64,000 nt of DNA, from NCBI GenBank assembly GCA_040285855.1, contig JAUFOQ010000003.1:868001-932000 (forward strand). The letters run 5' to 3'. How positions within the stretch are numbered: the first letter of the stretch is position 1; every line of letters begins with the position of its first letter. Below are positions 27,632-64,000 of this stretch, piece by piece. The notes beneath the pieces are model-generated. The model was given only the letters and a program-made list of their open reading frames with translations. It was not told the origin of the DNA and ran no database searches. A program made the translations under genes and the position numbers. The stretch comes from Eukaryota sp. GEM-RC1. Taxonomy: Eukaryota.

Positions 27632-28902
27632 ATGAAACGACTGCCTCTCGTTAGAGTGGGGTTCTTTCTCATAATGTTTGCCATATTTTTTGGCAGTAAA
27701 ATGAATCCATCGAACATAACACAAAAGGTCTTTCCAATAACGGGTTATGGACCAACATTGAACTCATCAAGTTGTCTGATCACCGTCATTCTTATCCTTG
27801 CAGTTCGTACAGAATCAAATTGACAAACGTTGAGATTGACATTACATCAAGTGATTTCATCATCACTTATCATTCCCCCAATCCTCTCAATGAATCCTTG
27901 CTACACCATTCTATTCAGTCATGTTGTGAACGACGTAATTTGTCCTTCAAGCGAGTAAGTTTTCGTCATTCAAAGCAACCACTTAACACAATTGTTGGTG
28001 AACCAATATATGTTCTTCCAACTGTACACCCTCCTAACTTCTTCCATGCTGCAGTAGATAACTCAATGTCACTCTATCATACAATGCGTACCGATAACAC
28101 GTCAAACGCTAAAGTTCTTCTTCTTAAGTGTCCTAATCGCCTGTTTCCCTCCAGTTATAAGGACTTGCTAAACCCCTTTGTTACTGAGATCATCGACTAT
28201 GATACTCCTACCTATTATGTGACTTCAGAGCTCTACCTAGGAGTCGACACAGAGCCTGTTTACTGTTTTAAAGGACGTCATGAACTGAGTTGGTGTCCAG
28301 CATTGACTGTGCAATGGAGAAAACAAATTTTATCTTATTTGAAAATCAAGGAATCTCAAGAACCAGAATCGTCTGTTCTGAATGTTCTAGTATTAGAAAG
28401 ACACTATGTCAACCGTCAAATGTTGAGTTTCATGAACAAAACTAATCGGTCAGTCTTTGTCAAAGCTCTCGAACATCATAATGTAACCGTTAAGTTTCAA
28501 CAAATGGAGGTCTTGTCTCTAAAGCATCAACTAACTGCTGCATTCAATACTGATGTCATCATTGGTGCTCACGGAGCTGGTCTTGTATGGTCACTATTTC
28601 AACCTTCATTATCGTCTATTATCGTTTTGTATCCTCCAGGGTGTTATAATTACGTCTACAATGTCATTCCGAATAGACTCAACAGACCCCATTACTTCTA
28701 CCATGTTCTTGATGTGATCCACAGATCGGAAGAAGGAAAGAGTTGGTTGTATCGTCATGGTTATCCTTATAACCGTGACTTCTTTAAGAAGTTGTTGTGT
28801 AATAGAAGGGTTCGTGATGTTGATCTTGTTGAAGATACAGAAAAACTGACTGGTTTGACTATAACTGCGGTTAATAGATTAAGAGAATTACGATCTTCAT
28901 AA
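27632..28902 (+). CDS. Glycosyltransferase family 61 (DUF563) type II membrane protein, one frame break at ~27725-27733
   Basis: N-terminal anchor VGFFLIMFAIFF, NFFHAAVD and QLTAAFNTDVIIGAHGAGLVWSLF (the HGAGL motif of GT61). Confidence 0.8.
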
Positions 28903-29214: not shown

Positions 29215-31450
29215 CTAGATCAAACCAAATCCTTCAGAATTCTGAATGGCTAATAATAATTTCTCCCTAAGTAGGTTTTCATCCTTATAATCTGGCAGTA
29301 TAAGAATGTTAAAACAAGTATGTGCTGTCGGAAGGAAACTTTCTGGACTGGCTCTACCAATAACAAATTTTAAATTTGACAATCCTCCCACAGGCACTCC
29401 TGAAATAAGTATTTAAAAAATCAACAAACTATCAGTGCCAGTAACAAACTGCAGAAACTTCCTCTGCTGATCCGGTGGAAGATCATGAAGAATTTTCCAA
29501 AACGCTTCTAAAATTAGAATATTTAATAAAACACATACTAATCGTATCAGACGTAGGTGAATACCCATCATACATAGTCCTCCTCTCCAAGGCTACAAAG
29601 TCCATGGTCTGCTCACCACAAACAATTAGCTCAAGCTCAGCAGGTTTCAAATCCAAGTGAGTGACCATCTTGAGACCTTCGAATAACCGTGTAAATCCAG
29701 CTTTGAAGGGTTCAAATTGATCTGCTATTGATTTGTTCAAAATCCAGTCCACATAGGCTTTAACGTACTCAACTTTGTTTTTGGAGGTTACGGGAATGTT
29801 AGCTCCGTCTGGGCACAATTCAAACACTTTACGTTCGTCAAAGATTTCACGTTCAATTGTCCAATTTCTGCAAAAGACTTCTTCGACGTCATCACCTGGG
29901 TAATCAAGCAACTGATTGAGCCCATGAGTGAGATCATAATCAATATCTTGAAGGTCGGGTAGAGTAACTTTGTAATTGAGCAACTTCTTCCAAATGGCAG
30001 TTGGAAATCGAAGATCTACAGTGATTCCATTAAAAAAGGCAAGTCCAATCAAAATCCCAGTCAACTCATACTCTCTCCTTCTTTCCTCACCAATGAAATT
30101 AAACCACCTTAAAGTATTATCCCCAGTAGTAATAAACATCCCATACTTTTCATTTAAAATCTCCTTCATCACCAACTGAAAAAACTCCTGCCTGAGACCC
30201 CCCTCATCTACCCCGGGTTCACCAATAAACTGGACCTTTAAAGGTTTCTTTAGTTCCTCGTTGGTTAAGTTTGAGAGCTGTTCCAGTGCATTTGTCAACA
30301 AAGTATCTCTGTGAACTTTGAGGATAAGATAGGGAACTGGCGGACGAGAAGAAGATCCAGAGAAACGAGAGAACAACATTGAGAGCATTGCGTCTTGTTG
30401 TGTCTGGTTCTGAAGTCTTCTTGCTTCTGTTTGAATGACGTCAGCTTTTGAGCGTGGAGTTAAGAGGAATGGTCCAGGTCCTACAAACAACGATCGTGCT
30501 CCAGACAAATACCTCGCAGTGTCACGTCTCAAGTCCACGTCAGCATTAACAGCGTCATTATAGAACTCGGTAAATTCTAACAAAGGAGCGGCAACCTTGG
30601 AAGCCTCCACGTCAGCTTTGTAAAGGATGGAAAGCCCTTGGACCATGGAAATAGAGAGGTTAATGTCAACGTTGAAGGCATTTGCTGCAACACTGGCTAC
30701 TAGGATGGTTAGTTGTTGTTGGATGTTGATGACAGCGGTTCGGAAGTAACCAGCGGGAAGAGTTGAGAACCAGCTGACTAGAACCTTGGAGAGAGAGTTT
30801 GGTAGGGCACCCATAACACCAGTGACACGCAGAATGGCGTTGACAGACTCGGGTTCAGCAAGGATGGGGAAGAGAAGGAAAAAGACAATGCAACGAAGAG
30901 TGGCACCATCAGGATAATTAGGTTCAGAAGTTTCGAATGAGGGAGCGGTGTTGCAGAAGCCAGCAAGGATCTTTTGTATTGAACCAGTGACAATGTCCGC
31001 AAGTTTTGGGGTTCGAGCAATGAGAGTGTTGGCGATATGGAAGAATTCATCCGATCTGTCAATGTCAAGGCCTAGAGAATCACCAGGACTGTGAACATAG
31101 AAGTTAGAGATGATTGAAGTGGGTGAAGATAGAAGAGATGAGAAAACATCAGGAAGTACTTCGGGATCTGCAGACAGCAGTGAGAAGTCTGTAGGAGTGA
31201 CAGGTTTGAAGTCTGCTGGTAATGATGCTTCTTTTCTTAAAGGAGGACATAGAAGATCTAGACGATTGGTCCTAAGTAAACCTAATGCCATGACTGCTGC
31301 CTGGTTAACGTCTTTAGGTTTTGAACTGTCAGGACATGAAGCACAATAGAGATTCGTACAAGAACTTCGACCACATCCTGTGAGCAATTGTAGGACTAAC
31401 TTCTGATAGTAAGTTTGTAGATATTCCGGAATTGGTTTGCGATCAGACAT
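29215..31450 (-). CDS. UBE3A: HECT E3 ubiquitin ligase, UBE3A/E6AP-like; introns 29508-29538 and 29400-29429
   Basis: N-terminal QLLTGCGRSSCTNLYCASC (AZUL-type Zn finger). HECT motifs LKVQFIGEPGVDEGGLRQEFF, FLQFVTGTDRVPVGG, LPTAHTCFN and SEGFGLI. Two GT-AG introns (31 and 30 nt) restore the frame. Confidence 0.9.
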
Positions 31451-31699
31451 TAAAAGGAATGAACTTTGAGTTAAAAGCAGTGCTGTGTTGTCAAATGCGC
31501 ACTTTTTCCAGAAATGAAGTGCGTCAAAATGCGCCAAATGCGCACATTTCTGCGCATTTTGACGCACTTTGGCTGAATGCGCGCATTTTACGTGCGCATT
31601 TTGATTTCGAACTTGAGACACCCCATAAATAAAAATCTTTTTCGTCGTGCTGATACATGTTCTCGTAATTCTCGATAGAGAAATTTTTTCTATCTCATT

Positions 31700-32523
31700 A
31701 CTTCTAATTCAAAATTAGCTTTGTACCACTATTCACAATGGTACATAAAAAGTCTCTTACCATTCTCCAGCATAATTTGCTTCATACCATGACCGGCAAG
31801 TAACAATCTATATCACATAAAGCTCTTTTATAAATCGTAACTTTATATCTATAACGCTACCTTTGCTCCATCCACCCCTTCTTTCTGTTTATTGAAGGAC
31901 GACCTGCTCTTCGTTTTCTAACAGGAGGACTTAATGGTTCTTCTGGATCTTCCCACTGCTCCTTACTGCGAGGGAGGTACAATAGACAATGCATACATTC
32001 TCATGTATGACATTGTTGAGTACACTTCATCACAGTAAGAATCAACATCTTCTTTCATCTTCATAAGTGCTGCTGCAGCATGAGAGCATGGAGATCCAAG
32101 TTGCTGCCATCTTCCACAGTCACAATGCTTCTCTCTCAAATTTACTCTCATGTACCTTCCACCTTCCATCTGAACTTCACAAATGTCATTTCCTCGGTTA
32201 ATGGCGGTGTAATTATCCACACATCACTCGCATTTTCCTTGCAAACAACAAGAAAAGTACAGTATGGCTGACAACATACAACTCTACAGCGTGTGGTGTC
32301 ACTATGACTGTATTTAACTTCTCTTCTGTCGATCAAGTTGTCATGGATCAAACGAAGCTGGAAGTCTGACTTCTTATCAAAGGTAGATTGCTCTTCTAAG
32401 GGAGACAGGTTTAAGGTATGCATATAGTCAAACGAAAGGTTGATTGACTGATGGTATAAAAACAATTATTGTGGTATAAGGCTAATTATTTATGTGTGCA
32501 ATTGGTATAAAACGAATTTTCCC
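31700..32523 (-). mobile_element. Internally deleted Mutator (MULE) element nested in the hAT element
   Basis: MuDR-type N-domain (FDKKSDFQ...SDTTRCRVVC...CTFLV...DVWII) is joined out of frame to a SWIM finger (CDCGRWQQLGSPCSHA) and RRAGRP. TACCA subterminal repeats. Left boundary approximate. Confidence 0.7.
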
Positions 32524-39042: not shown

Positions 39043-39118
39043 TTGGTTCAAAAATCGAATTTCTGTGGCACTTTTCCCTTTGAAAGAAGATCTCTTTCGT
39101 CTTAAAGTGTTGTCGTTA
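39043..39118. promoter_or_regulatory. 76-bp divergent (bidirectional) promoter between COG3 and receptor A
   Basis: Head-to-head ATGs at 39042 (-) and 39119 (+). The segment is conserved upstream of receptor B (~48465-48537). Confidence 0.55.
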
Positions 39119-42100
39119 ATGACGCGTTTGACTTCTGCCGTGTTAATGCTTGTGCTGTTTACCTTATGTCTTGCCAATGACGTTCATTTTGTTCCTCCAG
39201 ATCCTCCTGATTCCACCGATCTCCTTTGGACTCGATCTGATCTCTGGACTCCTTCTCTTCCTACTGAAACTTCTAATGTCTACATTGATGGGAGTCAACT
39301 AGAGTCCTCTATCATTGTTAACAATGATGACGTCATCATCAACTCTCTTTACCTCACCAAAGTCGTTATTTCTATTGATTGTTCTTCTATCACAGTCAAT
39401 GGTTTCACTTCCGTCATTGATTCTTCCATTGATTCTACTTGTGATATCCGATCAGAGTTTACTTCACTTACTTATGAGTTTATTGGTGTTACAAAGTTGT
39501 CTGGTGTTAATCTAATTATTTTGGAGTTTGGAAAATTGATAGAACCACATTTAACTCTTGTCAATTCTAAAATAATTGTTAAAGAAGGTGCCACTTTAGT
39601 TGTTGATCAAAGTGACACGTCATCACCACTCATAGCTTGGGGCAATGGAGGACTAGGAAGAACTGGAACTGGTAATCAAGGTACTCATGGTCTTATGCCA
39701 GTCAATACTCAGCAGAGGTTTGCCTCGGTTTCCACCGGTGATTTTCACTCCTTAGGAGTCACTAGAGACGGCTTTCTCTACTCATGGGGGTCTAACAAAG
39801 AAGGGGATCCGAGAGCAGCGGGTCAACTTGGCTTGGGCGATGATGTTAATCGTCTTGTTCCAACAAAAGTAGATCTTTCCAATGTTGTCCAAGCTTCTGT
39901 TGGTAGCTGGCATAGTCTCGTTAGACTGAAAAATGGTGACGTTTACTCGTTTGGACGTGCAGGTGAAGGTCAACTCGGACATGGCAACACACACACCGAC
40001 GAACTATTTCCAAAAAAAAATTGATGACCTTTCAAATGTTGTTGATATTTCTGCTGGATCAATGAGTTCTTTAGCTGTGTTATCGAATGGAGAAGTGAAA
40101 GCTTGGGGTTATAACCCACACGGTGCCCTTGGAACAGGTTTAACTACTTCTCGTATCTTATCTCCCCAACGAGTTGTCATTAATCAACGAGTTAAGAAAG
40201 TCAATGGCGGTTATTACCACTCTCTTTTCATAACAGAAAGTGGTGAGTTATTTGCTGCTGGACGAAATCAATACGGAGAGCTTTGTGTTGGTGACACTGA
40301 TTCAAGAAATCTTCCTGTTCCTATTGTTAACTCTAAAGATTTCCATGTTATTCAAGCTAGACCTGGTAACTCTGCTTACACCTGGGAGCACATAACCACG
40401 ATTTTCCTCACTACTCAAGGTGAGGTATTCTCATGTGGTAGAGCTATTGGCCGATCTACCGATACAGTTCCAGCTCATTCCCCAGGAAAAGTTGAAGATA
40501 TGGGTGTGGTTTCAAGCATAACTAAAGGTTTTGATGCTGATAATAATGCCTTGTCGACGGATGGGGTTCTGTTTAGTTGGTCAAGTCGATCTGGTGCCCC
40601 CATCTTACCTTCTCCTGTTACTGAAACTTCTAAATTAAAGGTTGGTAAAGTGTATTCTGGATCATTTCATTGGTTTGTCCAAGAAACTATCAATACTGAT
40701 ATTTCCGGAAATGACGACTCTTCTATAGAAATTGCAGGAAAATTGGAGAACCGCCTTGAATTTCCTCTATTGTTCAATGTTTCAATCAGTATTCCTTGTA
40801 CCGGGGTTCTGTCGTCATATCGGTCACTCAAATTCAACACAAGTCTGGATAATTCTGGGATAATCAAAGTTGACGATTTTCTTCAATTGGACTCCTCTGT
40901 AGTCTTGGCCTTAAATGGTGGTAGTCTTGAAGCTAAACATGTTGTTGTTCAACAATATGCTTCAGTAACAGGCCGTGGATCAATTTTTTCAACTGTTTTT
41001 AATTACGGCACCATTAAACCAACTGGTGTACTTGAAATTCAAAAGGACTTGGTAATTGCTCAAAATTCGAATGTTTTATTAAGCTATAACAATAACACTC
41101 AATTAATTGTTAAAGGAATTCTTTCTGTAAATGGATCCTTTGTTTTTACTTTTCCCAATTCAATTCCTTCTAATTATACCATTTCTTTAGTTCTATTTGG
41201 TTCTTTACTTTCTGAACATGACTCATTTAAAGTGCAATGTGATCAGTATTTTGACTTGTTTTTGACGATTCTTCTATCAGCGTGTTAACAATTCACGATT
41301 TTCCGGGCCATGTTATTGAATCAGGCCAATGTCCCTCACCATTAAAGAATGTTGTTTACCTTGTCGTTCCCCTGAATAATTCCAATGATATTCTTTGGTC
41401 AAGAAATGATATCTGGGTACCATCTCCTCCTAATGAGAATTCCACTGTAATTATAGATGGTAATTATATTAATCAAGTTGTGTTTATTGACCAAAACGTC
41501 ATCATCAAATCTCTTCACCTCACAAATGTCGTCATTTCCATCGATTGTTCTTCAATTACAGTCAATGGTTTCACTTCCTTCATTGATTCTTCCATTGAAT
41601 CTACTTGTGATAATCGATCAGAGTTTACTTCACTTACATATGAGTTTATTGGTGTTACAAAGTTGTCTGGTATTAATCTAATTGTTTTGGAGTTTGGAAA
41701 ATTAATAGAACCACAGTTAACTCTTGTCGATGCTAAAGTAATTGTTAAAGAAGATGCCACAGTAGTTATTGATCAAAAGAAACGTCATCACCACTCTTAG
41801 CTTGGGGTAATGGAGAAGATGGTAGAACTGGAACTGGTAATCAAGATAGTCATGGTCTTATACCGGTCAATACAGATCAGATGTTTGCTTCAGTTGCTGC
41901 CGGTAAAGCACACTCTTTGGGAGTCACTAGAGATGGTTTTCTCTACTCATGGGGAGCTAATTCCTTGTCTGATCTTGGTGATACTGGTCAACTTGGCTTG
42001 GGAGATGCTGACAACAGACTAGTTCCAACTAAAGTAAATCTCACTAATGTTGTTCAAGCTTCTGCTGGATATGCTCATAGTCTCGTTAGACTAGAAAATG

Positions 42101-45100
42101 GTGACGTTTACTCTTTTGGAGCTTCACTTTTTGGTCAACTTGGACATGATAGTACTTCTCCTAATCAGTATTTTCCTCAAAAATTGAATCTCTTTCTAAT
42201 GTTGCTTCTGTTTCTGCTGGGTATGGCCATTCTTTAGCACTGTTGTCTAGCGGAGAAGCCAAGGCTTGGGGTTATAATGAATACGGTCAGCTTGGCATTG
42301 GATCATCAGGTTTTTCTGCCGGCAAGTCCTCTCCTCATTTAGTTACTTTTAACTTACCAGTCAAGAAAGTTGTAGCATGTTTCGAACACTCCTTTTTCCT
42401 TACTGAAAGTGGTGAGCTATTTGCTACAGGTAGGAATGACAATGGTCAGCTTTGTGTTGGAGATACCAATGACAGAAATAGTCCTACTCCCATTGTTAAC
42501 TCCAAAGATTTCCACGTGGTTCAAGTAAGTTGTGGTAGAAGTTCTTCAATCTTTTGACTTCCCAAGGTAACGTTTATTCTTGTGGTCAAATTCTAGGTAG
42601 ATCTACCAGTACAATTCCTGCTCATTCACCTGGGAAAGTTGAAAGATTGAAAAGGACTACCAGTATTCATAGCAGTTCAGAGATCATGTTTGCAGTTTCA
42701 CTAACTCGAATTTTGTATAGTTGGACTAAGACAAACTTACCTTCTGTTACAACTGAAACTATTGGCCTTGAGGTTGGTAAAGTCTTTGTTGGATATGATC
42801 ATTTTTTCATTGAAAGTATGGTTCAGTCTAATATCACTGGTGAAGGTTCTATTTTAGAAATTGAAGGAGAATTGTCAATCAATCTTGAACTACCTATGGT
42901 CCTCAACACTTCAATTATTGTTCATGCTTCTGGCAGATTCTTCTCTTTATATTCAGAAATGAGGTTGACAAAATCAATCGCAAACTCTGGAATGGTTAAA
43001 ATTGAGGGTCTTTTTGAAATTGACTCCACATCTACCTTGATTTTAATTGGTGGAACTGTTGAAGCTGATGATTGCTTCATCTCAGAGTTTGCTTCAATTA
43101 CAGGCTATGGATTAATTAATTCCATTGTTTTTAATTATGGAACATTTAATCTATCTGGTTTACTTGAAATTCAAAAAGACTTGGTAATTGCTCAAATTTC
43201 GAATGTTGTATTCAGCTATAACAACAATGAAACTCAATTGATTGTTAAAGGAGTTCTTTCTGTAAAAGGTATGTGTGTCTTTACTTTTCCCAATTCAATT
43301 CCTTCTAATTATACCATTTCTTTAATTCTATTTGGCTCTTTACTTTCTGAACATGACTCATTCAAAGTGCAATGTGATCAGTATTTTGACTTGTTTTTGA
43401 TGATTCTTCTATCAGCGTGGTAACTACCCTAGACTATCCAGGAATTGATCCTGTTTCAGGTCAGTGTCCTTTACCAGTAGTTGATCCTACCAGTCTAAAT
43501 CTACCTCTCAATAATTCTAATGATATTCTTTGGTCAAGAAATGATATCTGGGTACCATCTCCTCCTAATGAGAATTCCACTGTAATTATAGATGGTAATT
43601 ATATTAATCAAGTTGTATTCATTGATCAAAACGTCATCATCAACTCTCTTTACCTCACCGAAGTCGTTATTTCCCTTGATTGTTCTTCAATCACAGTCAA
43701 TGGTTTAACTTTCTTCATTGATTCTTCCATTGAATCTACTTGTGATACTGGATCAGAGTTTACTTCACTTACCTATGAGTTTATTGGTGTTACAAAGTTG
43801 TCTGGTATTAATCTAATTGTTTTGGAGTTTGGAAAATTAATAGAACCACAGTTAACTCTTGTCAATTCTAAAGTAATTGTTAAAGAAAATGCCACTTTAA
43901 TTGTTGATCAAAATCACACTTCATCATCACTCTTAGCTTATGGAGAAGATGGGAAAACGGGCTCTTTTAGTGAAAAGAACTTAAATACGAATAGCCATTC
44001 TAACCATTTGCTTGGAAAAGAACTGATAGAGTATAGTATTTCCGGAAATGATGACTCACATATTGAAATTGAAGGAACACTGCAAGTAGAAACAAATATT
44101 GAATCTTATTTGATTTTAGATATCTCAGTCGATGTTCTTTCTACCGGCCATCTTGTTTGCTCTTTTCCAGGTATTAAACTTAGAAATATCATTACCGTTT
44201 TGGGAGCAATCAAAACTGATGGTTCCCTTGATTTTGACTCATCGTCTACTTTTATTCTCAATGGAGGGACTGTCGAAGCCCATAACTTCTTCATTTCAGA
44301 ATTTTCTTCTATTTCTGGCATTGGTTATATTGATTCTACTGTTTTCAATTATGGAACCATTGAACCCTCTGGTGAAATTGAAATTGAAAATGATTTATTA
44401 TTGTATCCTAGCTCGAAATTAATATTCAATAACAAGGACTCCAACAACAAGTTCTTACATATTAAAGGAACAATCATTTTTAGTGGAAGCTTGATTCTTG
44501 ATTTTTTTAATCACCGTCACTGGTCTGGTCGCCTCAATCTAAATGATTCATTTACTTTGTTAATTTACGAAGAAAGAAACGCTGAGTTTAACACGATTTC
44601 AATCAATTGTGAGTCTCTTTTGAAATTACTCAAACTGAAAGCTCTCTTTCTATTGTTGTTGTCTCAGAATTTCCAGAATTTACTAGTACTGATGAACTTA
44701 TTTGCCCAACAGAGGAGGATCCAAATAATCCCAAAGACCCGGAGCCAATTGATCCCGACCCCGAAGATTCTAAGAAGCAACAGATTCTGCCTTTTACCGT
44801 AGATTTTAAATTTGTCTTTTTCCTTATGATTTCACTGATCATACTTGTTCTAATCGGATGGTGTCTCCTTTTCCGAAAGCAGAAGACTTCCGCTGATTTC
44901 AATCCTTCAAATCTTCTTCCTCTTAAGAAGAATCCCATCTTTTCTGAAACTATTACAAGTACTCAAGACAAAATCCTGGAAAACACGTATTCTATTAAAT
45001 CTCCTCAAGTTAACCACCAATCAGTAGTTTCCTCCCTTTGCAGTACCATCTCAAACATGAAAGATGACTTAGCTGAATGGGAACCACAGCAGTACATTGA

Positions 45101-46955
45101 GTCAATAACTGCACCAATTCTTGACACTCTGACTCTTCTTACTTCTTCTTCTTCAGTTTTTTCTCCGATTGGAATGGCTCTGGGCACGTTGTTTACCTCA
45201 ATCAAAAACGTCAAGATCAATAAAACTCAAGCTGCAGTTCTTGGAGCTAGAGTTTTAAGACTAACAAAGCTTACTCTGTCTCAATTAGAAACTAACATGG
45301 AACTGGCAGAGTCACCAATGTTCTCTGAACTTTTGAAAAATTTCACAAATATTTGTAATCGAGTTAATACCGTGGTTACACAACATGACGATGCTCAATG
45401 GTTTAAGCGAACATTTACTCATGAAAAATTCAAAAGAGAATTTGAAATGTGTAACAAACTTTTGGATGATTTTTCATCAGAGTTGCTAATTGCTTTTGCT
45501 GGAAAGACTTTTGAAAAGTTGCCACCTTTATCCCAACAAAAGGTCGATGCAATCATTGACTTCGATCAAGAAGAATTCCATTCATCACTGGCCAATCACA
45601 ATCAAATTTTATTGAAAGAAATGCGTTTAGAATTCCGAGAGTTACAAAAACAAATCTCGTCTGCTACTGAAAAGTCTATTAAAGCTGCTCTTGAAGAACA
45701 ACAACAACTTCATACAGAACAACGTAAAGCTCTTCAAAACCAAATATTAGAAAATCAAACAACAAAAGAAATTCAATCAAATATTTCTGCAGTTGAATTA
45801 GAAATTGATTGGGAAACTTCCCTATTTAGTGGTCAATCTGAAGTCGTTCATGCTGAATATGCTCTTAGTGAAGTTGTTGTTAAACTGTATTATAGTACTG
45901 GTAAAATTAGTCCAGAGCTTGCAAGAGAATTCTCCATTTTAAGTTCTCTCCCCAATGTTCCTTCATTACCCAGAATTTATGGTCTTACTTTGGTACTAAA
46001 GAATGGCAAGGAACGCTATGGTCTTGTAATGGAACGACTATCAAGTGTAACTCTAAAGGACAAAATTTCAAAAATCAAAACTGAAAACAAAAAGCTTGAT
46101 GTGTTAATTAGTATAGCTAATGCTTTGGTATCTTGCCACGAGTCAAAGTTCCTTCATCGAGATCTAAAACCAGACAATATTCTGTTTAGAGGTGCTTGTC
46201 CAGTGATTATTGATTGGGGAAGTGGTAAACATATTGGAAATTCAAATATGTCATTATCTTTAAATTCTAATAGAGTTTTGACTCCCAATTGGGCTAGTCC
46301 TGAGCTCGTTTCAGATGACACCGTCTACGCTGATTCGATTGACGTTTTCTCATTTGCTTTGATTGCAGTCTATGTGTTCACAGAGGAATCAATTTGGCAA
46401 GACTTTGAAGGATTTCCTAATAGAGATCAACTGATTATTGAATCACTCAGAACTGGTGATATTCCTGATATTCCCCATCACTCTGGTCTTCCCACTGCTC
46501 TCTTACCTCTTCTACGTCAATGTCTCCAGTTTAAATACACTGAACGTCCAAACATGCAACAAGTTGTTTCAATTCTATCAGCGTTTAGACACAAGAGTTC
46601 TCCAGTAGATTGTCTTAATCTAGGGAATATTTACCTTTGTGATTATGGATTGACTTTGATTGACAAGGAATATGTTCAAAATGGACCGCTTGAAGTTTGT
46701 TTGGAGATTTATTCCAAAATCTCTCTATTATTAGAGTTTTGTTACTCTCAAGATCTCAGCAGCAAGTTTTCTCTGGTATTAGATTTAATTGAAGGTCTAC
46801 ATGAGATTCCTTCTGCTCTAGTTGAAAGAAAGAAGCGTATTGATAGACTTTTGAGTCGCCGGTTCACTCTTCAGGCAGCAATTCCAGTATTTGATTTGAA
46901 TGTTCCTCAAGAACCTGAACAACTAGATGTTGTTGTTGAACGTTTTTCTTCGTAG
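39119..46955 (+). CDS. Receptor A: signal peptide, 3 ectodomain modules (2 with RCC1 propellers), TM helix, MLKL-like four-helix bundle, coiled coil, protein kinase (~2600 aa reconstructed across 7 single-base frame breaks)
   Basis: Signal MTRLTSAVLMLVLFTLCLA. G8-like W..W.P..P...V.IDG starts. RCC1 repeats (SAG..HSL...G.VY.WG.N..GQLG.G). TM FVFFLMISLIILVLIGWCLLF then RKQK. VKINKTQAAVLGARVLRL...WFKRTFTHEKFKREFEMCNKLLDD. Kinase VVVK, HRDLKPDNIL, IIDWG, TPNWASPE, DVFSFA. Breaks at ~40015, 41260, 41777, 42181, 42554, 43396, 44619. Confidence 0.75.
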
Positions 46956-47897: not shown

Positions 47898-48470
47898 AGA
47901 AAATCTCCAGAATTCAAGCGGAATTTGATGTATTGGTCTAGCAATTCTTTGAGGTAAGAACGAGCAGCAGGTCTTCCAGCAAGTAGAGAAGAGAAGTCAG
48001 CAAGAGAGGAAGAGAGAGGAGAAGCTGATGGAAGACGAGAAATACAGGCAGAGGCTTGATAAAAGACATGTCGGTAAGCTCTGGAGAGGTATTGTTGATA
48101 TGTATTGAGATAAGAGTCAGCTGAATGAAGAGACTTGTTTGCCAGTAGAAAGCTGCACATTCTTCACAACGTTCCAGGAAAAGCTTATATTCAGAAAGAG
48201 AGCACGATAATTGAGTGTTGCTGTCGTGATGAAATATAGGAGCAACAAGATGATCTTTTGGAGAAATGATAAGGAAACATTGATGTTGTAGAGTTCACAT
48301 CGTACTGAAAATATCTGTGTATCATGAGATCAACGAAGAAAGTTTTGCCAAGCATTTGAACAATCATAAGAGGCAGAAGACAAATAACTTTTCCGTGTCT
48401 GTAACTGAGATATTGTATCTGCTAGGCCGGTAGAAAGTGAATGAGAGGTTACATGGAGGGGTTGGGTTCA
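47898..48470 (-). pseudogene. Decayed 5' fragment of COG3 co-duplicated with the receptor gene
   Basis: Aligns with ~38404-39050 (ANKSLHSADSYLNTYQQYLSRAYRHV...). It has internal deletions and the COG3 ATG segment is missing. Confidence 0.88.
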
Positions 48471-48537
48471 AAAATCGAATTTCTGTGGTACTTTTTTTCC
48501 TTTAAAAGAACTCTCTCGTCTTTAAGTGTTGTCTTCA

Positions 48538-51500
48538 ATGACACGTTTAAGTTCTGCAGTGTTAATTCTTTTGCTGGCCACCTTATGTCTTGCTAATGAC
48601 GTTCATTTTGTTCCTCCTGATCCTCCTGATTCTACCGATCTCCTTTGGACTCGGTCTGATCTCTGGACTCCTTCTCCTCCTACTGAAACTTCCAATGTCT
48701 ACATTGATGGGAGTCAACTAGAGTCCTCTATCCTTGTGAACAATGATGACGTCATCATAAACACTCTTTACCTTACCAATGTCGTTCTTTCTCTTGATTG
48801 TTCTGCAATCACAGTCAATGGTTTCACTTCCTTTATTGATTCTTCCATTGAGTCTACTTGTGATATTCGATCAGAACTTACTTCACTTACCTATGAGTTT
48901 ATTGGTGTTACAATGTTGTCTGGTATTAATCTAATTGTTTTGGAGTTTGGAAAATTCGTAGAACCACAGTTAACTCTTGTCAATTCTAAAGTAATTGTTA
49001 AAGAAGATGCTACTTTAATTGTGGATCAAAGCGACACGTCATCACCACTCATAGCTTGGGGTAATGGAGAAGATGGGAAAACGGGAACTGGGCATCAAGG
49101 TACTCATGGTCTTATGCTAGTTAATACTCAACAGCAGTTTATTTCAGTTTCTGCTAGTGAAGTACATAATCTAGGTGTTACTAGAGATGGTTTCCTCTAC
49201 TCGTGGGGACAGAACTCTAAAGGACAACTTGGTTTAGGGGATACTACCAATAGATTAGTACCAACAAAGGTAGGGTTATCGAATGTTGTCCAAGCTTCTG
49301 CTGGTTTTGAGTACAGTCTTGTTAGACTAGGAAATGGTGACGTTTACTCCTTTGGAGGAGCTGGATGGAGTGGAAGACTTGGACATGGATCTTGGTCCAT
49401 AGATGAATATTTTCCTAGAAGAATTGAATCTCTTTCTAATGTTGTTGACATCTCTGCTGGATATTCACACTCACTGGCAGTAATGTCTAATGGAGAAGCA
49501 AAAGCCTGGGGATCTGGTACACATGGTAGACTCGGTACTGGGTCTTCGTCGTCCAGCTCTCCTCAGACAGTTCTTATCAACTTCTCTGTCAAGAAAGTCA
49601 GGGCAGGATATGATCACTCTATGTTCCTTACTGAAAGTGGTGAGCTATTTGCTTCAGGTTATAATTATAATGGTCAGCTTTGTGTTGGTGATACCACTAA
49701 TAGAAATGTCCCTACTCCTATTGTTAACTCTAAAGATTTCCACGTGATTCAAGTCAGTATCGGTAAAACCTTGAGTACCCGGACAACCATCTTCCTTACT
49801 ACTCAAGGTGAGGTGTTCTCATGTGGTAGAGCTATTGGCCGAACTACTGATACTGTTCCAGCTCATTCCCCAGGAAAAATTGAAGATATGGGTGTGGTTT
49901 CAAGAATTTCGTGTGGTGATTATGATGTTTTTGCTTTGGCGACTGGTGGGACCTTGTATAGTTGGTCACGTTGGTCCAATCGCTTTCCTTCTCCTGTTCC
50001 TGAAACTTCTGAATTAAAGGTTGGTAAAGTGTATTCTGGATCATATCATTGGTTTGTCCACGAAACTGTTGATACTGATATTTCCGGAGATGACGACTCT
50101 TCTATAGAAATTGCAGGAAAATTGGAAAACCGCCTTGAATTTCCTCTATTGTTCAATACTTCACTCATCATCCATTCTACTGGTGATCTATCATCAATTC
50201 AAAGCGTGAAGTTTGCAAAAAGACTGAGAAATTCAGGTACAATCACAATTGATGGTCTACTTGAATTTGACTCATCTTCAGTTATTTCTCTCTTAGGTGG
50301 CAGTATTAAAGCTAAAGATATTATATTTCAAGAATTTGCTTCTATTACAGGCTATGGATTGATCTATTCTACTGTTTTTAATTATGCAACAATTATTCCT
50401 TGCGGTGTACTTGAAATTCAAAAAGACTTGGTAGTGGCTCCCAATTCCAGGGTTTTACTAAACTATAACAACAATGAAGTCCAATTGGTTATTAAAGGAG
50501 TTCTTTCTGTAAATGGAACTATTGCTCTAAATGCTACTCGTCACCCTTCATCTGTTCACTTCTCTGTCTCTTTAGTTCTCTTTGGTTCATTGATTTCAGA
50601 GTATGCATCATTTCCTGTTTACTGCGATCACTACTTTGGCGTGTTTTTTGATGATTCTTTTTATCAGCGTGGTAACTACCCAAGACTATCCAGGTCCTGT
50701 CAATGTTTCAGGTCAATGTCCTTCACCAGCAGATAATCCATTCTATCTTGTCGTTCCCCTTAATAATTCTAATGGTATTCTTTGGTCAAGAAATGATATC
50801 TGGGTACCATCTCCTCCTAATGAAAATTCCACTGTAATTATAGATGGTAATTATATTAATCAAGTTGTATTTATTGACCAAACCGTCATCATCAACTCTC
50901 TTTACCTCACCAATGTCGTTATTTCTCTTGATTGTTCTTCAGTCACAGTCAATGGTTTCACTTCCTTCATTGATTCTTCTATTGAATCTACTTGTGATAT
51001 TCGATCAGAGTTTACTTCACTTACCTATGTGTTTATTGGTGTTACAAAGTTGTCTGGAATTAATCTAATTGTTTTGGAGTTTGGAAAATTAATAGAACCA
51101 CAGTTAACCCTTGTCAATTCTAAAGTAATTGTCGAAGAAGACGTTATGTTTATTGTTGACCAAAGTGACAAATCACTCATAGCTTGGGGTAATGGAAAAG
51201 ATGGAAAAACAGGAACTGGTAACCAAGGTCATCATGGTCTTATGTTAGTTCATACCGATAGGAAATTTCTTTCAGTTACCGCTGGTAAAGCACACTCTCT
51301 AGGAGTTACAAGAGACGGTTTTCTCTACTCTTGGGGAACAAACTTTGTGACTAACTTTGGTGAAACTGGCCAACTTGGCTTGGGAGATGCTGACAGTCGT
51401 ATGGCTCCCACAAAAATTAATTTGACCAGTGTTGTCCAAGCGTCTGCTGGTTATGGTCATAGTCTTGTTAGAGTAGAAAATGGTGACGTTTACTCTTTTG

Positions 51501-54500
51501 GAGCTTCACTTTTTGGTCAACTTGGACATGATAATACTTATCCCAATCAATATTTTCCTAAAAAAATTGAGTCTCTTTCTAATGTTGCTTCTGTTTCTGC
51601 TGGGTACGGACATTCTTTAGCACTTTTGTCTACCGGAGAAGCCAAGGCTTGGGGTTATAATGAATACGGTCAGCTTGGTATTGGATCATCAGGTTTTTCT
51701 GCCGGTAAGTCCTCTCCTCATCATGTGGCTCTTAACTTCCCTATCAAGAAAGCTGTAGCATGTTTTGAACACTCATTTTTCCTCACTGAAAGTGGTGAGC
51801 TATTTGCTACAGGTAGGAATCATCATGGTCAGCTTTGTGTTGGAGATATCAATAACAGAAATAGTCCTACTCCCATTGTTAACTCTAAAGATTTCCACGT
51901 GGTTGAAGTAAGTTGTGGTAAAAGGTCTTCTATCTTTTGACTTACCAAGGTAACGTTTATTCTTGTGGTCAGATACTAGGTAGATCTACCAGTACAGTTG
52001 CTGCTCATTCTCCTGGGAAAGTTGAATTGTTGGAGAATATCATGAGTATTTCTAGTGGGTACAGTACACATATCACGTCATCAGTGTCTGGCACCTTATT
52101 TAGTTGGTCTGACAACAATCTACCTGCTCCTAATTTGAATACTCTCGAGTTTACGGTAAGAAAGCCAGTTGCAGGTTCTGATTACTTCTTTATCCAGGAA
52201 ATGATTTCGTCGGATATTATTGGAGATGAAAACTCTGTTATTGATATTGAAGGTACGTTTACTGTTCTTGATGTGTTCCCTTTGAATTTTGCTTCTTCAT
52301 GTACAATTCGTTCTACTGGAAGTCTTTTGTTCTCCTATTATGGAATGAAAATATTAAAAAATGTTGAAACTGATGGAACAATGCACGTTGATGGTCTTCT
52401 TGAATTTGACTCGTCATCTACTTTGATTCTAAATGGTGGCATTGTAAAATCTAATGATGTAATAGTTCATGAATTCGCTTCTATTATTGGTAATGGATTA
52501 ATCAATTCTAATGTTGTAAATTTGGGAACAATTATTCCTTCTGGTGTACTTAAAATTCAAAATGATTTGGTAATTGCTCAAAATTCGAATGTCTCATCAA
52601 CATATAACAACAACACTCAATTGATTGTTAACGGAATTCTTTCTGTAAATGGACTGTTTGTTTTTACTTTTCCCAATTCAATTCCTTCTAATTATACCAT
52701 TTCTTTAGTTCTATTTGGCTCTTTACTTTCTGAACATGACTCATTCAAAGTTCAATGTGATCAGTATTTTGACTTGTTTTTGATGATTCTTCTATCAGCG
52801 TGGTAACTACCCAAGACTATCCAGGAATTGATCCTGTTTCAGGTCAATGTCTTTTGCCTTTAGATCCCAATGTTTATCTTGTTGTTCCCCTTAATAATTC
52901 TAATGATATTATTTGGTCAAGAAATGATATCTGGGTACCATCTCCTCCTAATGAGAATTCCACTGTAATTATAGATGGTAATTATATTAATCAAGTTGTA
53001 TTTATTGACCAAAACGTCATCATCAACTCTCTTTACCTCACCAATGTCGTTCTTTCTCTTGATTGTTGTTCAATCACAGTCAATGGTTTCACTTCCTTCA
53101 TTGATTCTTCCATTGAATCTACTTGCGATATTCGATCAGAGTTTACTTCATTTACCTATGAGTTAATTGGTGTTACAAAGATGTCTGGTATTAATCTAAT
53201 TGTTTTGGAGTTTGGAAAATTAATAGAACCACAGTTAATTCTTGTCAATTCTAAAGTAATTGTTATAGAAGATGCTAGATTAATTGTAGATCAAAGTGAC
53301 ATTATTCAATCTAATATTTCTGGAAATGAGCATTCTGATTTTCAAATTGAAGGCACGTTCGAAACTCGTCATACATTGCCTTTGGTTTTGGATACACATG
53401 TTTCTATTTCTTCAACCGGAACTCTTTTGGCTTTTTTCAATGGCCTTAAAGTTGGAAAATCAATGGAGAATTCTGGAGTAATCAGTGTTAGTGGTCTTCT
53501 TGAATTTGACTCGCCATCTACTTTGATTCTGAATGGTGGCAGTGTTAAAGCTAAGAATGTAACAGTTCAAGAATTGGCTTCAATTACAGGCTTTGGATTA
53601 ATCAATTCCACTGTTGTTAATTATGGAAAAATTATTCCTTCTGGTTTACTTGAAATTCAGAAGGATTTTGTAATTGCTGAACATTCTAGTGTTTTATTAA
53701 ACTATAACAACAATGAAACTCAATTGATTGTTGACGGAATTCTTTCTGTTAATGGATCTTTTGTTTTTACTTTTCCCAATTCAATTCCTTCTAATTATAC
53801 CTTTTCTTTAGTTCTATTTGGATCTTTACTTTCTGAACATGACTCATTCAAAGTTCAATGTGATCAGTATTTTGACTTGTTTTTGACGATTCTTCTATCA
53901 GCGTGGTAACTACCCAAGACTATCCAGGTCCTGTCAATGTTTCAGGTCAATGTCCTTCACCAGTAGATAATCCTTTCTATTTTGTCGTTCCCCTTAATAA
54001 TTCTAATGATATTCTTTGGTCAAGAAATGATATCTGGGTACCATCTCCTCCTAATGAGAATTCCACTGTAATTATAGATGGTAATTATATTAATCAAGTT
54101 GTATTTATTGAACTAACCGTCGTCATCAACACTCTTTACCTCACCAATGTCGTTCTTTCTCTTGATTGTTCTTCAATCACAGTCAATGGTTTCACTTCCT
54201 TCATTGATTCTTCCATTGAATCTACTTGCGATATTCGATCAGAGTTTACTTCATTTACCTATGAGTTAATTGGTGTTACAAAGATGTCTGGTATTAATCT
54301 AATTGTTTTGGAGTTTGGAAAATTAATAGAACCACAGTTAATTCTTGTCAATTCTAAAGTAATTGTTACAGAAGATGCCACTTTAATTGTTGACCAAAGT
54401 GACATTATTCAATCCAATATTTCTGGAAATGGGCATTCTGTTATTCAAATTGAAGGTTTATTCGAAACTCGTGATACATTGCCTTTGGTTTTGGATACAG

Positions 54501-57500
54501 ATGTTTCTATTTCTTCAACCGGAACTCTCTTATCTTTGTTCAATGGCCTAAAAGTTGGTAAATCAATGGAGAATTCTGGAGTAATCAGTGTTGATGGTCT
54601 TCTTGAATTTGACTCATCATCTACTTTAATTCTTAATGGTGGCAGTGTTAAAGCTGAGAATGTAATAGTTCAAGAATCTACTTCAATTACAGGCTATGGC
54701 TTAATCAATTCAACTGTTTTTAATTATGGAACAATTATTCCTTCTGGCGAACTTGAAATTCAAAATGACTTGGTAGTTGCTCAACACTCGAATGTTTTAT
54801 TAAGCTATAACAACAACACTCAGTTGATTGTTAACGGAATTCTTTCTTTAAATGGATCCTTTGTTTTTGCTTTTCCCAATTCAATTCCTTCTAATTATAC
54901 CATTTCTTTAGTTCTATTTGGTTCTTTACTTTCTGAACATGACTCATTCAAAGTTCAATGTGATCACTACTTTGGCGTGTTTTTGACGATTCTTCTATCA
55001 GCGTGGTAACTACCCAACAATATCCAGGTCTTGTCAATGTTTCAGGTCAATGTCCTTCACCAGTTGTTAATCCTTTCTATCTAGTTGTTCCCCTTAATAA
55101 TTCTAATGATATTCTTTGGTCAAGAAATGATATCTGGGTACCATCTCCTCCTAATGAGAATTCCACTGTAATTATAGATGGTAATTATATTAATCAAGTT
55201 GTATTTATCGACCAAAACGTCATCATCAACTCTCTTTACCTCACCAATGTCGTTCTTTCTCTTGATTGTTCTTCAATCACAGTCAATAGTTTCACTTCCT
55301 TCATTGATTCTTCCATTGAATCTACTTGCGATATTCGATCAGAGTTTACTGCATTTACCTATGAGTTAATTCGTGTTACAAAGATGTCTGGTATTAATCT
55401 AATTATTTTGGAGTTTGGAAAATTAATAGAACCACAGTTAATTCTTGTCAATTCTAAAGTAATTGTTACAGAAGATGCCACTTTAATTGTTGACCAAAGT
55501 GACATTACTCAATCTAATATTTCTGGAAATGGGCATTCTGTTATTCAAATTGAAGGTTTATTCGAAACTCGTGATACATTGCCTTTGGTTTTGGATACAG
55601 ATGTTTCTATTTCTTCAACCGGAACTCTCTTATCTTTGTTCAATGGCCTTAAAGTAGGAAAATCAATGGAGAGTTCTGGAGTAATTAGTGTTGATGGTCT
55701 TCTTGAATTTGACTCATCATCTACTTTAATTCTTAATGGTGGCAGTGTTAAAGCTAAGAATGTAATAGTTCAAGAATCTACTTCTATTACAGGCTTTGGA
55801 TTAATCAATTCCACTGTTGTTAATTATGGAACAATCATTCCTTCTGGTGTACTTGAAATTCACAAAGACTTGGTAGTTGCTCAACATTCGAATGTTTTAT
55901 TAACCTATAACAACAACACTCAATTAATTGTTAAAGGAATTCTTTCTGTAAATGGATCCTTTGTTTTTACTTTTCCCAATTCAATTCCTTCTAATTATTC
56001 CATTTCTTTAGTTATATTTGGCTCTGTACTTTCTGAACATGACTCATTCAAAGTTCAATGTGATCAGTATTTTGACTTGTTTTTGGACGATTCTTCTATC
56101 AGTGTGGTAACTACCCTAGACTATCCAGGGATTGATCCTGTTTCAGGTCAGTGTCCTTTACCATTAGATACCAATGTTTACCTTGTTGTTCCCCTTAATA
56201 ATTCTAATGATATTCTTTGGTCAAGAAATGATATCTGGGTACCATCTCCTCCTAATGAGAATTCCACTGTAATTATAGATGGTAATTATATTAATCAAGT
56301 TGTATTTATCGACCAAAACGTCATCATCAACTCTCTTTACCTCACCAATGTCGTTCTTTCTCTTGATTGTTCTGCAATCACAGTCAATGGTTTCACTTCC
56401 TTCATTGAATCTTCCATTGAATCTTCTTGTGATACTCGCTCAGAGTTTACTTCACTTACCTATGAGTTTATTGGTGTTACAAAGTTGTCTGGTATTAATC
56501 TAATTGTTTTGGAGTTTGGAAAATTAATAGAACCACAGCTAATTCTTTTCAATTCTAAAATAATTGTTAAAGAAGATGCTAGATTAATTGTTGACCAAAG
56601 TGACATTATTCAATCTAATATCTCTGGAAATGGGCATTCTGCTATTCAAATTAAAGGTTTATTCGAAACTCGTGATACATTGCCTTTGGTTTTGGATACA
56701 GATGTTTCTATTTCTTCAACAGGAACTCTCTTGGCTTTTTTCAGTGGTCTAAAAGTTGGAAAATCAATGGAGAGTTCTGGAGTAATCAGTGTTAATGGTT
56801 TACTTGAATTTGACTCGTCATCTACTTTGATTCTTAATGGTGGTAGTGTTAAAGTTAAGAATGTAATAGTTCAAGAATTGGCTTCAATTACAGGCTTTGG
56901 ATTAATCAATTCTACTGTTCTTAATTATGGAACAATTAAACCTTCTGGTTTACTTGAAATTCAGAAGGATTTTGTAATTGCTGAACATTCTAGTGTTTTA
57001 TTAAACTATAACAACAATAACACTCAATTAATTGTTAACGGAATTCTTTCTGTAAATGGATCCTTTGTTTTTGCTTTTCATAATTCAATTCTTTCCAATT
57101 TTACCTTTTCTTTAGTTCTATTTGGCTCTTTATATTCTGAACATGACTCATTCAAAGTTCAATGTGATAAGTATTTTGACTTGTTTTTGATGATTCTTCT
57201 ATCAGCGTGGTAACTACCCAAGACTATCCAGGAATTGATCCTGTTTCAGGTCAATGTCTTTTACCAGTAGTTAATCCTACTAATCTAGACCTACCTCCTA
57301 ATAATACTAGAGACATTCGCTGGTCAAGAAATGATATCTGGGTACCATCTCCTCCTAATGAGAATTCCGCTATAATTATAGATGGTAAAAACATTAATCA
57401 AGTTGTATTCATTGACCAAAACGTCAACATCAACTCTCTTTCCCTCACCAATGTCGTTATTTCTCTTGATTGTTCTACAATCACAGTCAATGGTTTCACT

Positions 57501-58847
57501 TCCTTTATTGATTCTTCCTTTGAGTCTACTTGTGATATTCCATCAGAGTTTACTTCACTTTCTTATGAGATTATTGGTGTTACAAAGTTGTCTGGAATTA
57601 ATCTAAATGTTTTGGAGTTTGGAAAATAATAGAACCACAGTTAAATTTTGTCAATTCTAAAGTAAATGTTAAAAAAGATGCTAGATTAATTGTTGGCCAA
57701 AGGGATAGGTCTTCACCACTCTTAGCTTGGGGTAATGGAAAAGATGGAATAACAGAAGCTCTTAGAACGAAGAACTTAAAAACGAATACCCATTCTAATC
57801 AGTTACTTGAAGAAGTGTTGATGGAATATAGTATTTCTGGAAATGATGACTCTCATATTGAAATCGAAGGAACTTTGGACGTAGAAAACAATTTTGAATC
57901 TTATTTACTTTTAGATATTTCAGTCGATGTTCTTTCGTCTGGTTCTTTAATATGCTCTTTTCCAGGTATTAAACTAGTAAATACTATTACCGTTTTGGGA
58001 GCAATCACAATTGATGGTTTTCTTGATTTTGACTCATCATCTACTTTTATTCTCAATGGAGGAACTGTCGAAGCCCATAACTTTTTCATTTCAGAATTTT
58101 CTTCTATTTCCGGCATTGGTTATATTAATTCTACTGTTTTCAATTATGGAACCATTGAACCTTCTAGTGAAATTGAAATTCAAAATGATTTAATACTGTA
58201 CCCTAGTTCGAAATTAATGTTTAGTAACAAGGAATCCAACAGCCAGTTCTTACGTGTTAAAGGAACAATCATTTTTAATGGAAGCTTGAGTATTGATTTC
58301 TTCAATCACCACCTCAATCTAAATGATTCGTTTACTTTGTTTTATTTTGAAAAAGGAAATGCTGAGTTTAGCTCTATTTCAATCAATTGTGAGTCTCTTT
58401 TGAAATTACTCAAACTGAAAGCTCTCTTTCTCTTGTTGTTGTCTCAGAATTTCCAGAATTGACTAATGGTGAACTTATTTGCCCAGCATCCGTAGATCCT
58501 AAAGACCCAAAGGAACAACTTAAGTCCACCTTCGATTTCAAATTTGTAGTCTTCATAACGAGTTCAATTATTATAGTTGTTTTAGTCGCATGGTTTTTAT
58601 TGTGTCGAAAAAGCAAAAATCATCAGATTTAAATCCAGTAATTCTTCTCGACCTAAAGAAAAAACCCAAGATCTTTACTGAATATACGCCAAGATTTGAC
58701 TCCAAAGTCCTTGCTCTCGTTGAAAGAAAGAAGCGTATTGATAGACTTTTGATTCAAAGGGCTGCTCTTAAGGAAGAAATTTCAGTAATTGATTTGAATA
58801 TTGCAGACGAACCCCAACAGGATGTTGTTATTGAAAGTTACAATTGA
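48538..58847 (+). CDS. Receptor B: paralogue with 7 ectodomain modules (2 with RCC1 propellers), TM helix and short tail; no MLKL or kinase domain (~3400 aa reconstructed across ~9 single-base frame breaks)
   Basis: Signal MTRLSSAVLILLLATLCLA and modules homologous to receptor A. TM FVVFITSSIIIVVLVAWFLL. Tail KQKSSDLNPVILLDLKKKP...ALVERKKRIDRLL...DVVIESYN*. Confidence 0.72.
52800..57206 (+). repeat. Four tandem ~1.10-kb coding repeats (propeller-less stalk modules)
   Basis: VTTQDYPG...GQCP...SEHDSFKVQCD units start at ~52800, 53903, 55003 and 56104. Confidence 0.92.
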
Positions 58848-63680: not shown

Positions 63681-64000
63681 CTTAGCCGCAATGCATGGTG
63701 ACATTCTTGGTGTCCTGTAACTTGGTTTATTAGGAAGACAATATTCCAAAGAATTTGTCACATGTCAGAGATTTTATTTGAAATGATTTGCTCCACCAAG
63801 ATCTCTCTTCTTTATAATCTACAGTACACTATACCCAACAGTGTTATTGATTATAACTCGTGTTCCAAAGAGCTCTATATATCAACGTGTCCTGGAGATC
63901 TTTCCGAAACTGCAACCGATCCATTTCTTCACTGAAATGAAATGATTGTATCAATACTTTCTTTCCAAAGTTGTTGAAGGATCAAATATAATGTAACTTT

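Follow-up and report, generated by a model that had tools for sequence, protein, structure and literature searches.

Gene A of the metamonad Eukaryota sp. GEM-RC1 encodes a predicted type I receptor kinase in which RCC1 propellers are carried on a beta-helix stalk and the tail joins an MLKL_N-like helical bundle to a kinase domain. It lies (39119..46955, plus strand) in a 64,000-nucleotide stretch of contig JAUFOQ010000003.1 (positions 868,001 to 932,000), called the window below, together with a paralogue, gene B (48538..58847, plus strand). GEM-RC is Skoliomonas, a free-living, anaerobic, bacterivorous metamonad (PMC11316075). A preliminary description of this DNA had concentrated on the membrane-distal propeller, which it took for a diversifying ligand-recognition surface; the receptor architecture is the stronger find. 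We favour, with moderate confidence, the reading that both genes belong to a small Skoliomonas family of surface receptors, in which RCC1 propellers are cassettes on a beta-helix stalk, gene conversion has produced a mosaic, and the face of the distal propeller has been freed from constraint and is possibly diversifying.

Domain architecture of gene A

Read across seven one-base frame breaks, all in the ectodomain, gene A encodes a signal peptide, three beta-helix units of ~370 amino acids each (the first two with an RCC1 propeller), a transmembrane (TM) helix, an MLKL_N domain, a coiled coil and a kinase, all on the plus strand. The signal peptide and the N-half of beta-helix unit 1 (39119..39625) are homogenised, with a synonymous divergence (pS) of 0.16 to gene B. 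Propeller 1, the distal RCC1 propeller (39626..40683), crosses a +1 break in an A-run at ~40012. The stalk then continues with the C-half of unit 1 (pS 0.46) and the N-half of unit 2 (pS 0.26; together 40684..41776), and is followed by propeller 2 (41782..42818), in which blades 2-5 are young or homogenised with a conserved face and the last blades are diverged. The terminal unit (43400..44700) retains only the first propeller residues, the remainder being deleted, as is also the case in gene B; thus, the propeller behaves as a removable cassette. Beyond it lie the TM helix (44814..44870, mean Kyte-Doolittle 3.0), the MLKL_N-like helical bundle (45189..45539; Pfam PF22215, 32.6 bits against a cut-off of 27) and a tyrosine kinase-like (TKL-like) Ser/Thr kinase domain (45861..46577) with the catalytic Lys, alphaC Glu, HRD motif and metal-binding Asp all in place. 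The membrane-distal, receptor-like placement of propeller 1 given in the preliminary description agrees with this predicted type I topology and with the MLKL_N and kinase domains at the end of gene A.

The fold of the ectodomain was modelled on module 1 of gene B, whose propeller (49045..50070, plus strand) matches RCC1 repeat profiles strongly (PF25390, 196.6 bits against a cut-off of 150; PF00415, 158 bits). The AlphaFold2 (AF2) model of 685 amino acids, built from 30 sequences, has a mean predicted local distance difference test score (pLDDT) of 85, about 83-98 over the propeller, and a predicted template-modelling score (pTM) of 0.73. It is a seven-bladed RCC1 propeller inserted into a continuous beta-helix. 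The propeller superposes on the RCC1-like domain (RLD) of HERC1/HERC2 with a target template-modelling score of 0.84 (Z 46.8 for the HERC2 RLD, root-mean-square deviation 1.9 over 334 residues), and scores Z 43-47 against HERC, RPGR and UVR8 and Z 21-22 against CR4/ACR4 ectodomains. The modelled stalk matches the autotransporter passengers Vag8, TibA and pertactin at Z 16-18 over 235-302 residues, at a sequence identity of about 10%; ESM leads for the stalk, which are leads only, were PF12334, PF12951 and PF03212 at 0.83-0.86.

Two further comparisons bear on the predicted MLKL-like tail. ESM Atlas neighbours of the gene A bundle carry MLKL_N or MCAfunc at 0.80-0.89, again as leads only, and the top Foldseek match of the tail is full-length MLKL (4btf, E 2.9e-10), though with low template-modelling scores (0.23/0.32) and on a region modelled at low confidence. 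The domain order finds a counterpart in P0243, a protein of the related strain TZLM1-RC, in which a signal peptide, a unit N-half, a propeller, a TM helix, an MLKL_N-like segment (23 bits, under the cut-off of 27) and a kinase occur in a single open reading frame (ORF). Thus, the domain order of gene A is independent of the read-through across its frame breaks. Searches for a published account of an RCC1 propeller/beta-helix/TM/MLKL_N/kinase architecture found no description; the main text of PMC11316075 contains 'RCC1' and 'kinase' zero times, and its searchable supplementary files, one scanned PDF excepted, are likewise silent on the terms sought.

Gene B and the relatives

Gene B has seven beta-helix units, the first two with propellers (propeller 2 at 51174..52200 by Pfam scan and codon alignments), a TM helix at about 58531-58600 and a short tail, all on the plus strand. 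Its juxtamembrane segment is fused straight to the last helix of the gene A tail, so that the MLKL_N bundle and the kinase have been lost; gene B is a kinase-less copy. The duplication took along the head-to-head layout of gene A with the neighbouring COG3 gene, including a 5'-end piece of COG3 that was co-duplicated with the receptor start and is now broken (47901..48480, minus strand). The pS of this remnant, about 0.25 overall (0.14-0.44), dates the duplication. The database protein P0001, which NCBI lists as hypothetical and assigns to Eukaryota sp. GEM-RC1, is 100% identical to module 1 of gene B.

Generic multi-RCC1 proteins crowded the results of a profile search over 1.84 billion representatives, whose best 150 matches added one member, P0262; the family size is therefore a lower bound. 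When the juxtamembrane-to-kinase region was used as the query, six proteins were recovered among 4809 candidates, all named for GEM-RC1 or TZLM1-RC, of which three exceed the MLKL_N cut-off and three fall below it at 20-25 bits. Across P0241-P0246 the MLKL_N-kinase module is reused with various partners, including stand-alone models. P0241 is a second copy of the gene A tail (95-96% identical), the bundle is N-terminal in P0244-P0246, P0245 has C-terminal RCC1 repeats, and P0244 and P0246 have C-terminal TM segments. P0122, P0126 and P0262 are giant relatives of 3.0-3.9 thousand amino acids with two to three propeller units, TM anchors and no kinase; in P0126 and P0262, adjacent propellers have near-identical flanks and divergent central blades.

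Propeller 1 copies differ on one face

The preliminary description quoted nine pairs of differing A/B motifs from module 1 and five motifs from module 2, all of which are seen in our codon-based alignments. We set face sites from the RCC1 repeat motif as two residues per A-B hairpin plus the start of each C-D loop, took blades 1-5 as the first ~230 codons of a propeller, and write A1 and B1 for propeller 1, and A2 and B2 for propeller 2, of the two genes; P0003, P0004 and the sister-species relatives were compared as protein only. The face sites fall in the expected turns of the AF2 model. In a phmmer alignment the hairpin face residues coincide with the Trp/Arg of the UVR8 GWRHT motif (W233/R234, W285/R286, W337/R338), positions that make up the UVR8 dimer interface (PMC4501546), and the variable loops do lie on one face, as had been proposed, namely the one bearing these residues.

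Within blades 1-5, A1 and B1 are identical at 7/33 face sites, compared with 146/187 other sites (Fisher p=5e-10) and 29/37 residues of the opposite-face loops (p=3e-6). For A2 and B2 the values are 27/39 on the face, 164/191 at other sites and 27/37 in the opposite-face loops, and the two faces differ from each other (7/33 versus 27/39, p=6e-5). Over the entire propeller, face identity between the genes is 15/51 in propeller 1 and 32/52 in propeller 2. The pattern recurs in other copies: P0004, a third module 1, shares 7/30 face residues with A1 and 8/30 with B1; P0003, a third module 2, shares 28/39 with A2 and 32/39 with B2; and the sister-strain pair P0007/P0243 agrees at 9/30 face sites versus 88/111 strand residues. 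The face loops of propeller 1 also bear insertions of variable length, and an extended hairpin loop on the binding face (40362..40400, plus strand) is specific to module 1, with both length and sequence variable between A, B and P0004, and is missing from module 2. The difference between propeller 1 copies is confined to one face, is real and is replicated.

The broader contrast drawn in the preliminary description, a variable distal propeller and a conserved second one, stands for the face and not for the whole propeller, where amino-acid identity is 72% and 75%, respectively. Nor is the module 1 framework nearly identical, as had been stated, since non-face identity is 226/287 (79%) in module 1 and 224/291 (77%) in module 2. 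Propeller 2 is not conserved throughout either: its last ~100 codons are 54% identical (propeller 1, 73%), and 7/10 residues differ in its long first loop.

These differences could reflect age and fold alone. The propeller 1 copies would then be older, module 2 would have been converted recently, and the face loops of RCC1 propellers would always evolve fastest, without selection acting differently on the two propellers or ligands being especially diverse. We regard this as unlikely, though part of it fits well. As a control we used 1146 three-repeat runs from 258 unrelated RCC1 proteins, whose pairs are mostly consensus-like rather than recent relatives and hence provide a floor. At a framework identity of 78-86%, their median face identity is 29-31% (about 0.3), with a 5th percentile of 19%; on this measure A1/B1 share 3/21 face residues. 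A conserved framework with a variable face is thus the normal design of the RCC1 fold, and what stands out is how well face 2 is conserved, at 16-18/21. An account from age and fold is harder to reconcile with B2/P0003, in which a framework identity of 42/54 goes with a face identity of 16/21, beyond the 95th percentile of the control, and with the finding that face and opposite loops are conserved to the same degree in module 2, the face of module 1 being far less conserved than its opposite loops.

Synonymous divergence and probable gene conversion

In blades 1-5, pS between A and B is 0.61 (95% confidence interval 0.54-0.69) in propeller 1 and 0.28 (0.21-0.35) in propeller 2, with maximum-likelihood synonymous distances (dS) of about 2.4 and 0.54. 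Non-synonymous divergence (pN) is 0.20 and 0.09, giving a pN/pS of 0.33 in each, and the ratio of non-synonymous to synonymous rates (omega) is 0.18 and 0.28. In the last blades the order of pS flips, to 0.28 in propeller 1 and 0.50 in propeller 2, so that synonymous divergence is unequal between the modules in both directions. The preliminary description had named an equal rise in synonymous divergence as the mark of an older duplication or conversion tract rather than of selection, and such a rise is what the alignments show, similar in size to the non-synonymous one; by that criterion its reading of module 1 is not supported. Raised synonymous divergence alone still leaves room for selection: where conversion is selected against, the same kind of divergence peak results (PMC3924837).

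Several results speak for the age of the propeller 1 copies, and to that extent for the explanation from age and fold. A1-B1 pS (0.60) is above the 0.45-0.50 of A1-A2, B1-A2 and B1-B2, so the module 1 pair is no closer than pairs across modules; in a tree of non-face sites A2, B2 and P0003 form a short-branch clade (support 99) with A1, B1 and P0004 basal; and the longest identical A/B tract, of 60 nucleotides, sits in propeller 2. The surroundings look homogenised: nine in-frame stalk N-units from both genes (a tenth is frameshifted) differ by a pS of 0.00-0.21 regardless of gene or position. Synonymous divergence between A and B is patchy (227 differences at 997 codons; variance p<0.0002), with a window maximum at 39902-40191 (permutation p=0.0002) and a mosaic of informative sites (p=0.0001). 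Within propeller 1 of gene A the old, synonymously diverged part is 39626-40345. Taken together, the alignments suggest that blades 1-5 of propeller 1 are older than their flanks and form part of a conversion mosaic.

A third possibility is that the propeller 1 face has been under true diversifying selection, in an arms race that selected against conversion there and raised linked synonymous divergence. We consider this possible, with the balance against it. A synonymous peak centred on propeller 1 with homogenised flanks is what PMC3924837 describes for such cases, P0126 and P0262 contain similar central islands of divergence between their own propellers, and length-variable insertions fall in the face loops. 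However, synonymous changes are enriched around face codons (p=0.03) but no longer so within blades 1-5 (p=0.12), and gene conversion can by itself mimic positive selection, as the same source notes.

Selection on the propeller faces

Codon models bear on the choice between these explanations, on a basis of four recombining, nearly saturated sequences. In pairwise maximum-likelihood fits, A1/B1 have a face omega of 0.58, with grid values of 0.3-1 inside the interval, and A2/B2 one of 0.27 (0.15-0.5); a joint test of separate face omegas is not significant (p=0.13, 0.076), which leaves room for a shared value as expected from age and fold alone. In four-sequence models with a separate face omega on the propeller 1 branches, the estimates are about 1 for propeller 1 and about 0.3 for propeller 2; non-face omega, over pairwise and four-sequence fits, is 0.07-0.23. 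A shared face omega is rejected in 22/22 of the four-sequence fits (p 0.0002-0.047), all of which draw on one set of four sequences and so are not independent of each other. These models support a difference in face constraint between the propellers, against the expectation from age and fold.

For omega above 1, the case depends on which sites are kept. At motif-variable face codons, a subset chosen after the result for all 39 sites, omega is 1.7-6.5 with p<0.05 in 10/12 fits, and 0/85 null simulations were as extreme. Yet all 39 face sites give 0.93-1.29 (significantly above 1 in 0/6 fits) and the 17 unambiguously aligned sites away from indels give 1.06-1.41 (0/3). Since omega exceeds 1 only when indel-adjacent loops are kept, the result is not robust: positive selection on the propeller 1 face, as first proposed, is indicated by the subset chosen afterwards and by 0/9 fits on the full or unambiguous sets. 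A fair reading of these alignments is purifying selection on face 2 and its absence from face 1, which may be diversifying.

Frame breaks

Each frame break is of one base and lies within or next to a homopolymer run; gene A has seven, gene B several more, and 7/8 unit junctions are broken. Those in T-run contexts lie at 41256, 42551, 43396, 44619, 51935, 52780, 53880, 54980, 57185 and 58395. The same break places recur in the gene models of other paralogues (P0003, P0004), and the read-through ectodomain segments of A and B contain no in-frame stops. The assembly was built from Nanopore R9.4 reads with Illumina correction (PMC11316075). A comparison of homopolymer depletion gave run ratios of 0.27 versus 0.31, and 7/21 indels among the copies of a 1.7-kb tandem repeat elsewhere in the window fall in runs of three or more. 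Judged from their homopolymer contexts and recurrent places, the breaks are likeliest to be systematic long-read error in poorly polished repeats.

Two other origins for the breaks were rejected. A real 35-nucleotide intron at the unit junctions, as in the database gene models, is contradicted by P0006 and one intact junction, which encode a homologous segment of equal length, and the donor GT is missing in gene B unit 1. Programmed frameshifting was set aside on inspection, as there is no slippery heptamer and different runs are affected.

If the breaks were real, the locus could be degenerating, with propeller 1, or the whole of gene A or B, having lost its ligand and the face drifting neutrally. 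The number of breaks, a propeller 1 face omega indistinguishable from 1, the lost kinase of gene B and the deleted terminal-unit propellers would all fit. We nevertheless think decay very unlikely, as non-face omega is still well below 1, in-frame stops are absent from the segments read through, and single-base breaks at homopolymers, in the same places in other paralogues' models, are what long-read error predicts.

Several points weigh against the reading of a small receptor family with a freed distal face. Gene A may be a pseudogene, given its seven frame breaks. The AF2 model of its MLKL_N region, itself of low confidence, is all-helical with pLDDT mostly below 55. Low face identity is ordinary among generic RCC1 runs, the pairwise models do not require separate face omegas, and dS in propeller 1, at 1.2-2.4, is near saturation. 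Finally, comparable divergence peaks occur elsewhere, one in the C-half of unit 1 and another where propeller 2 ends; together with the islands in P0126 and P0262, these indicate that the propeller 1 peak is not specific.

Possible mechanism and roles

Under the receptor-family reading, frequent gene conversion would homogenise the numerous units of the stalk as well as parts of the propellers. Blades 1-5 of propeller 1 would persist as old, distinct lineages whose binding face has evolved at close to the neutral rate, and the propeller 2 face would have stayed under purifying selection. Propeller 1 might then bind a paralogue-specific ligand, such as surface molecules of prey, parasites or conspecifics, and propeller 2 a partner common to the paralogues. 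The stalk would set the reach, with three units in gene A and seven in gene B. Ligand-driven clustering could switch on the kinase and the MLKL-like bundle, and the kinase-less gene B could act as a co-receptor or decoy.

An immune role is suggested by analogy with fungal HNWD NOD-like receptors (NLRs) and MLKL-like resistance kinases; adhesion, prey recognition or mating may be the role instead. The boldest version would be an innate-immune family in a free-living unicellular metamonad, in which one chain unites an active kinase and an MLKL-type executioner with a diversifying extracellular RCC1 sensor borne on an autotransporter-like stalk, with cassettes reshuffled by conversion and kinase-less paralogues as co-receptors or decoys; we hold this to be distinctly unlikely. 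Variable sensors linked to MLKL/HeLo-type death domains occur in animals, plants and fungi, mostly in intracellular, multi-protein pathways. If true, the fusion of sensor, MLKL-like bundle and kinase in one membrane receptor of a bacterivorous anaerobe would carry this logic over to a deep-branching unicellular organism, and would offer a way to test whether protists have surface non-self receptors. The receptors also present RCC1 propellers in a predicted role as interchangeable binding cassettes carried by a beta-helix stalk. Should the claim of selection fail, the finding reduces to a receptor-kinase architecture not described before, together with an ordinary gene-conversion mosaic.

Comparison with known systems

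UVR8, the HERC RLDs and RPGR are intracellular single-partner binders, and BLIP-II is secreted; a review of BLIP-II yielded no interface residues for comparison. These proteins share with the present propellers the RCC1-like fold (Z 30-47) and the position of the variable face; here, in contrast, the propellers are modules of a paralogous surface receptor family. The stalk resembles the beta-helix of autotransporter passengers (Vag8, TibA, pertactin, HMW1), but is accompanied by a eukaryotic signal peptide and a TM helix, with no beta-barrel.

Animal MLKL is a soluble pseudokinase, and the HET/HeLo and MLKL domains are akin. The tail of gene A is like MLKL and the plant MLKL-like kinases (for example, wheat Pm13) in combining an MLKL_N bundle, a helical linker and a kinase fold. 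It differs in that, in A and P0243, the module is preceded by a large ectodomain and a TM helix rather than standing at the free N-terminus of a soluble protein, and in that the kinase has its catalytic residues.

CRINKLY4/ACR4 is similar in having an extracellular seven-bladed propeller of the UVR8/BLIP-II type (7a0k, Z 21.9; 7a0j, Z 21.3), a single TM helix and a cytoplasmic kinase, and its putative ligand groove has low sequence conservation (bioRxiv 10.1101/2020.08.10.245050). In CRINKLY4 every blade has a disulfide and the propeller is followed by a cysteine-rich domain, according to the same preprint, whereas here an alignment of 14 propellers has no per-blade cysteine pairs and a beta-helix follows the propeller. 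In addition, the present proteins have canonical RCC1 repeats within a beta-helix stalk, up to three propellers per chain in relatives, and an MLKL_N bundle before the kinase.

The fungal HNWD NLRs het-d and het-e offer a likeness of another kind, namely a propeller sensor, a gene family under concerted evolution, a variable interaction face (PMC1805685) and a helical cell-death-type domain. Concerted evolution of repeated units is seen here too, in the stalk N-units and the mosaic sites. The HNWD proteins differ in being intracellular and NACHT-based, with WD40 rather than RCC1 propellers and near-identical, shuffled single repeats (PMC1805685), while Pfam matches to NACHT or NB-ARC are absent from A, B and 10 relatives, which have a signal peptide and a TM helix instead. 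Positive selection was reported at four codons in HNWD genes (PMC1805685); here omega exceeds 1 in most fits with indel-adjacent sites and in none otherwise. Gene A would thus act much as a CR4-type propeller receptor kinase does, with a variable face reminiscent of HNWD proteins, and is a member of neither family.

Neighbouring genes

The window is eukaryotic; besides retroelements it contains COG3, an AZUL-HECT ligase and a BTB protein. The starts of gene A and of COG3, the latter on the minus strand, are arranged head-to-head, only ~75 bp apart (39043-39119). Intact long ORFs at 23362-25188, 27700-28902 and 29483-31708 encode a BTB protein, a GT61-like glycosyltransferase, which scores slightly below its Pfam cut-off, and an E6AP-like AZUL-HECT ligase. 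Positions 1-19688 hold about eleven 1.7-kb tandem copies, 98-99% identical, each with pieces of a MIF4G-domain ORF, in an array that is broken up at 7210-9478; from 19689 onwards there are long terminal repeat (LTR) retroelement fragments with an integrase remnant. At 60627-63681 (minus strand), frameshifted ORFs look to us like a non-LTR retrotransposon (zinc knuckle, reverse transcriptase-like start), although a Pfam scan of one of these ORFs gave no match. A dispersed 650-bp repeat, 94% identical, occurs at 21213-21862 and 60259-60908.

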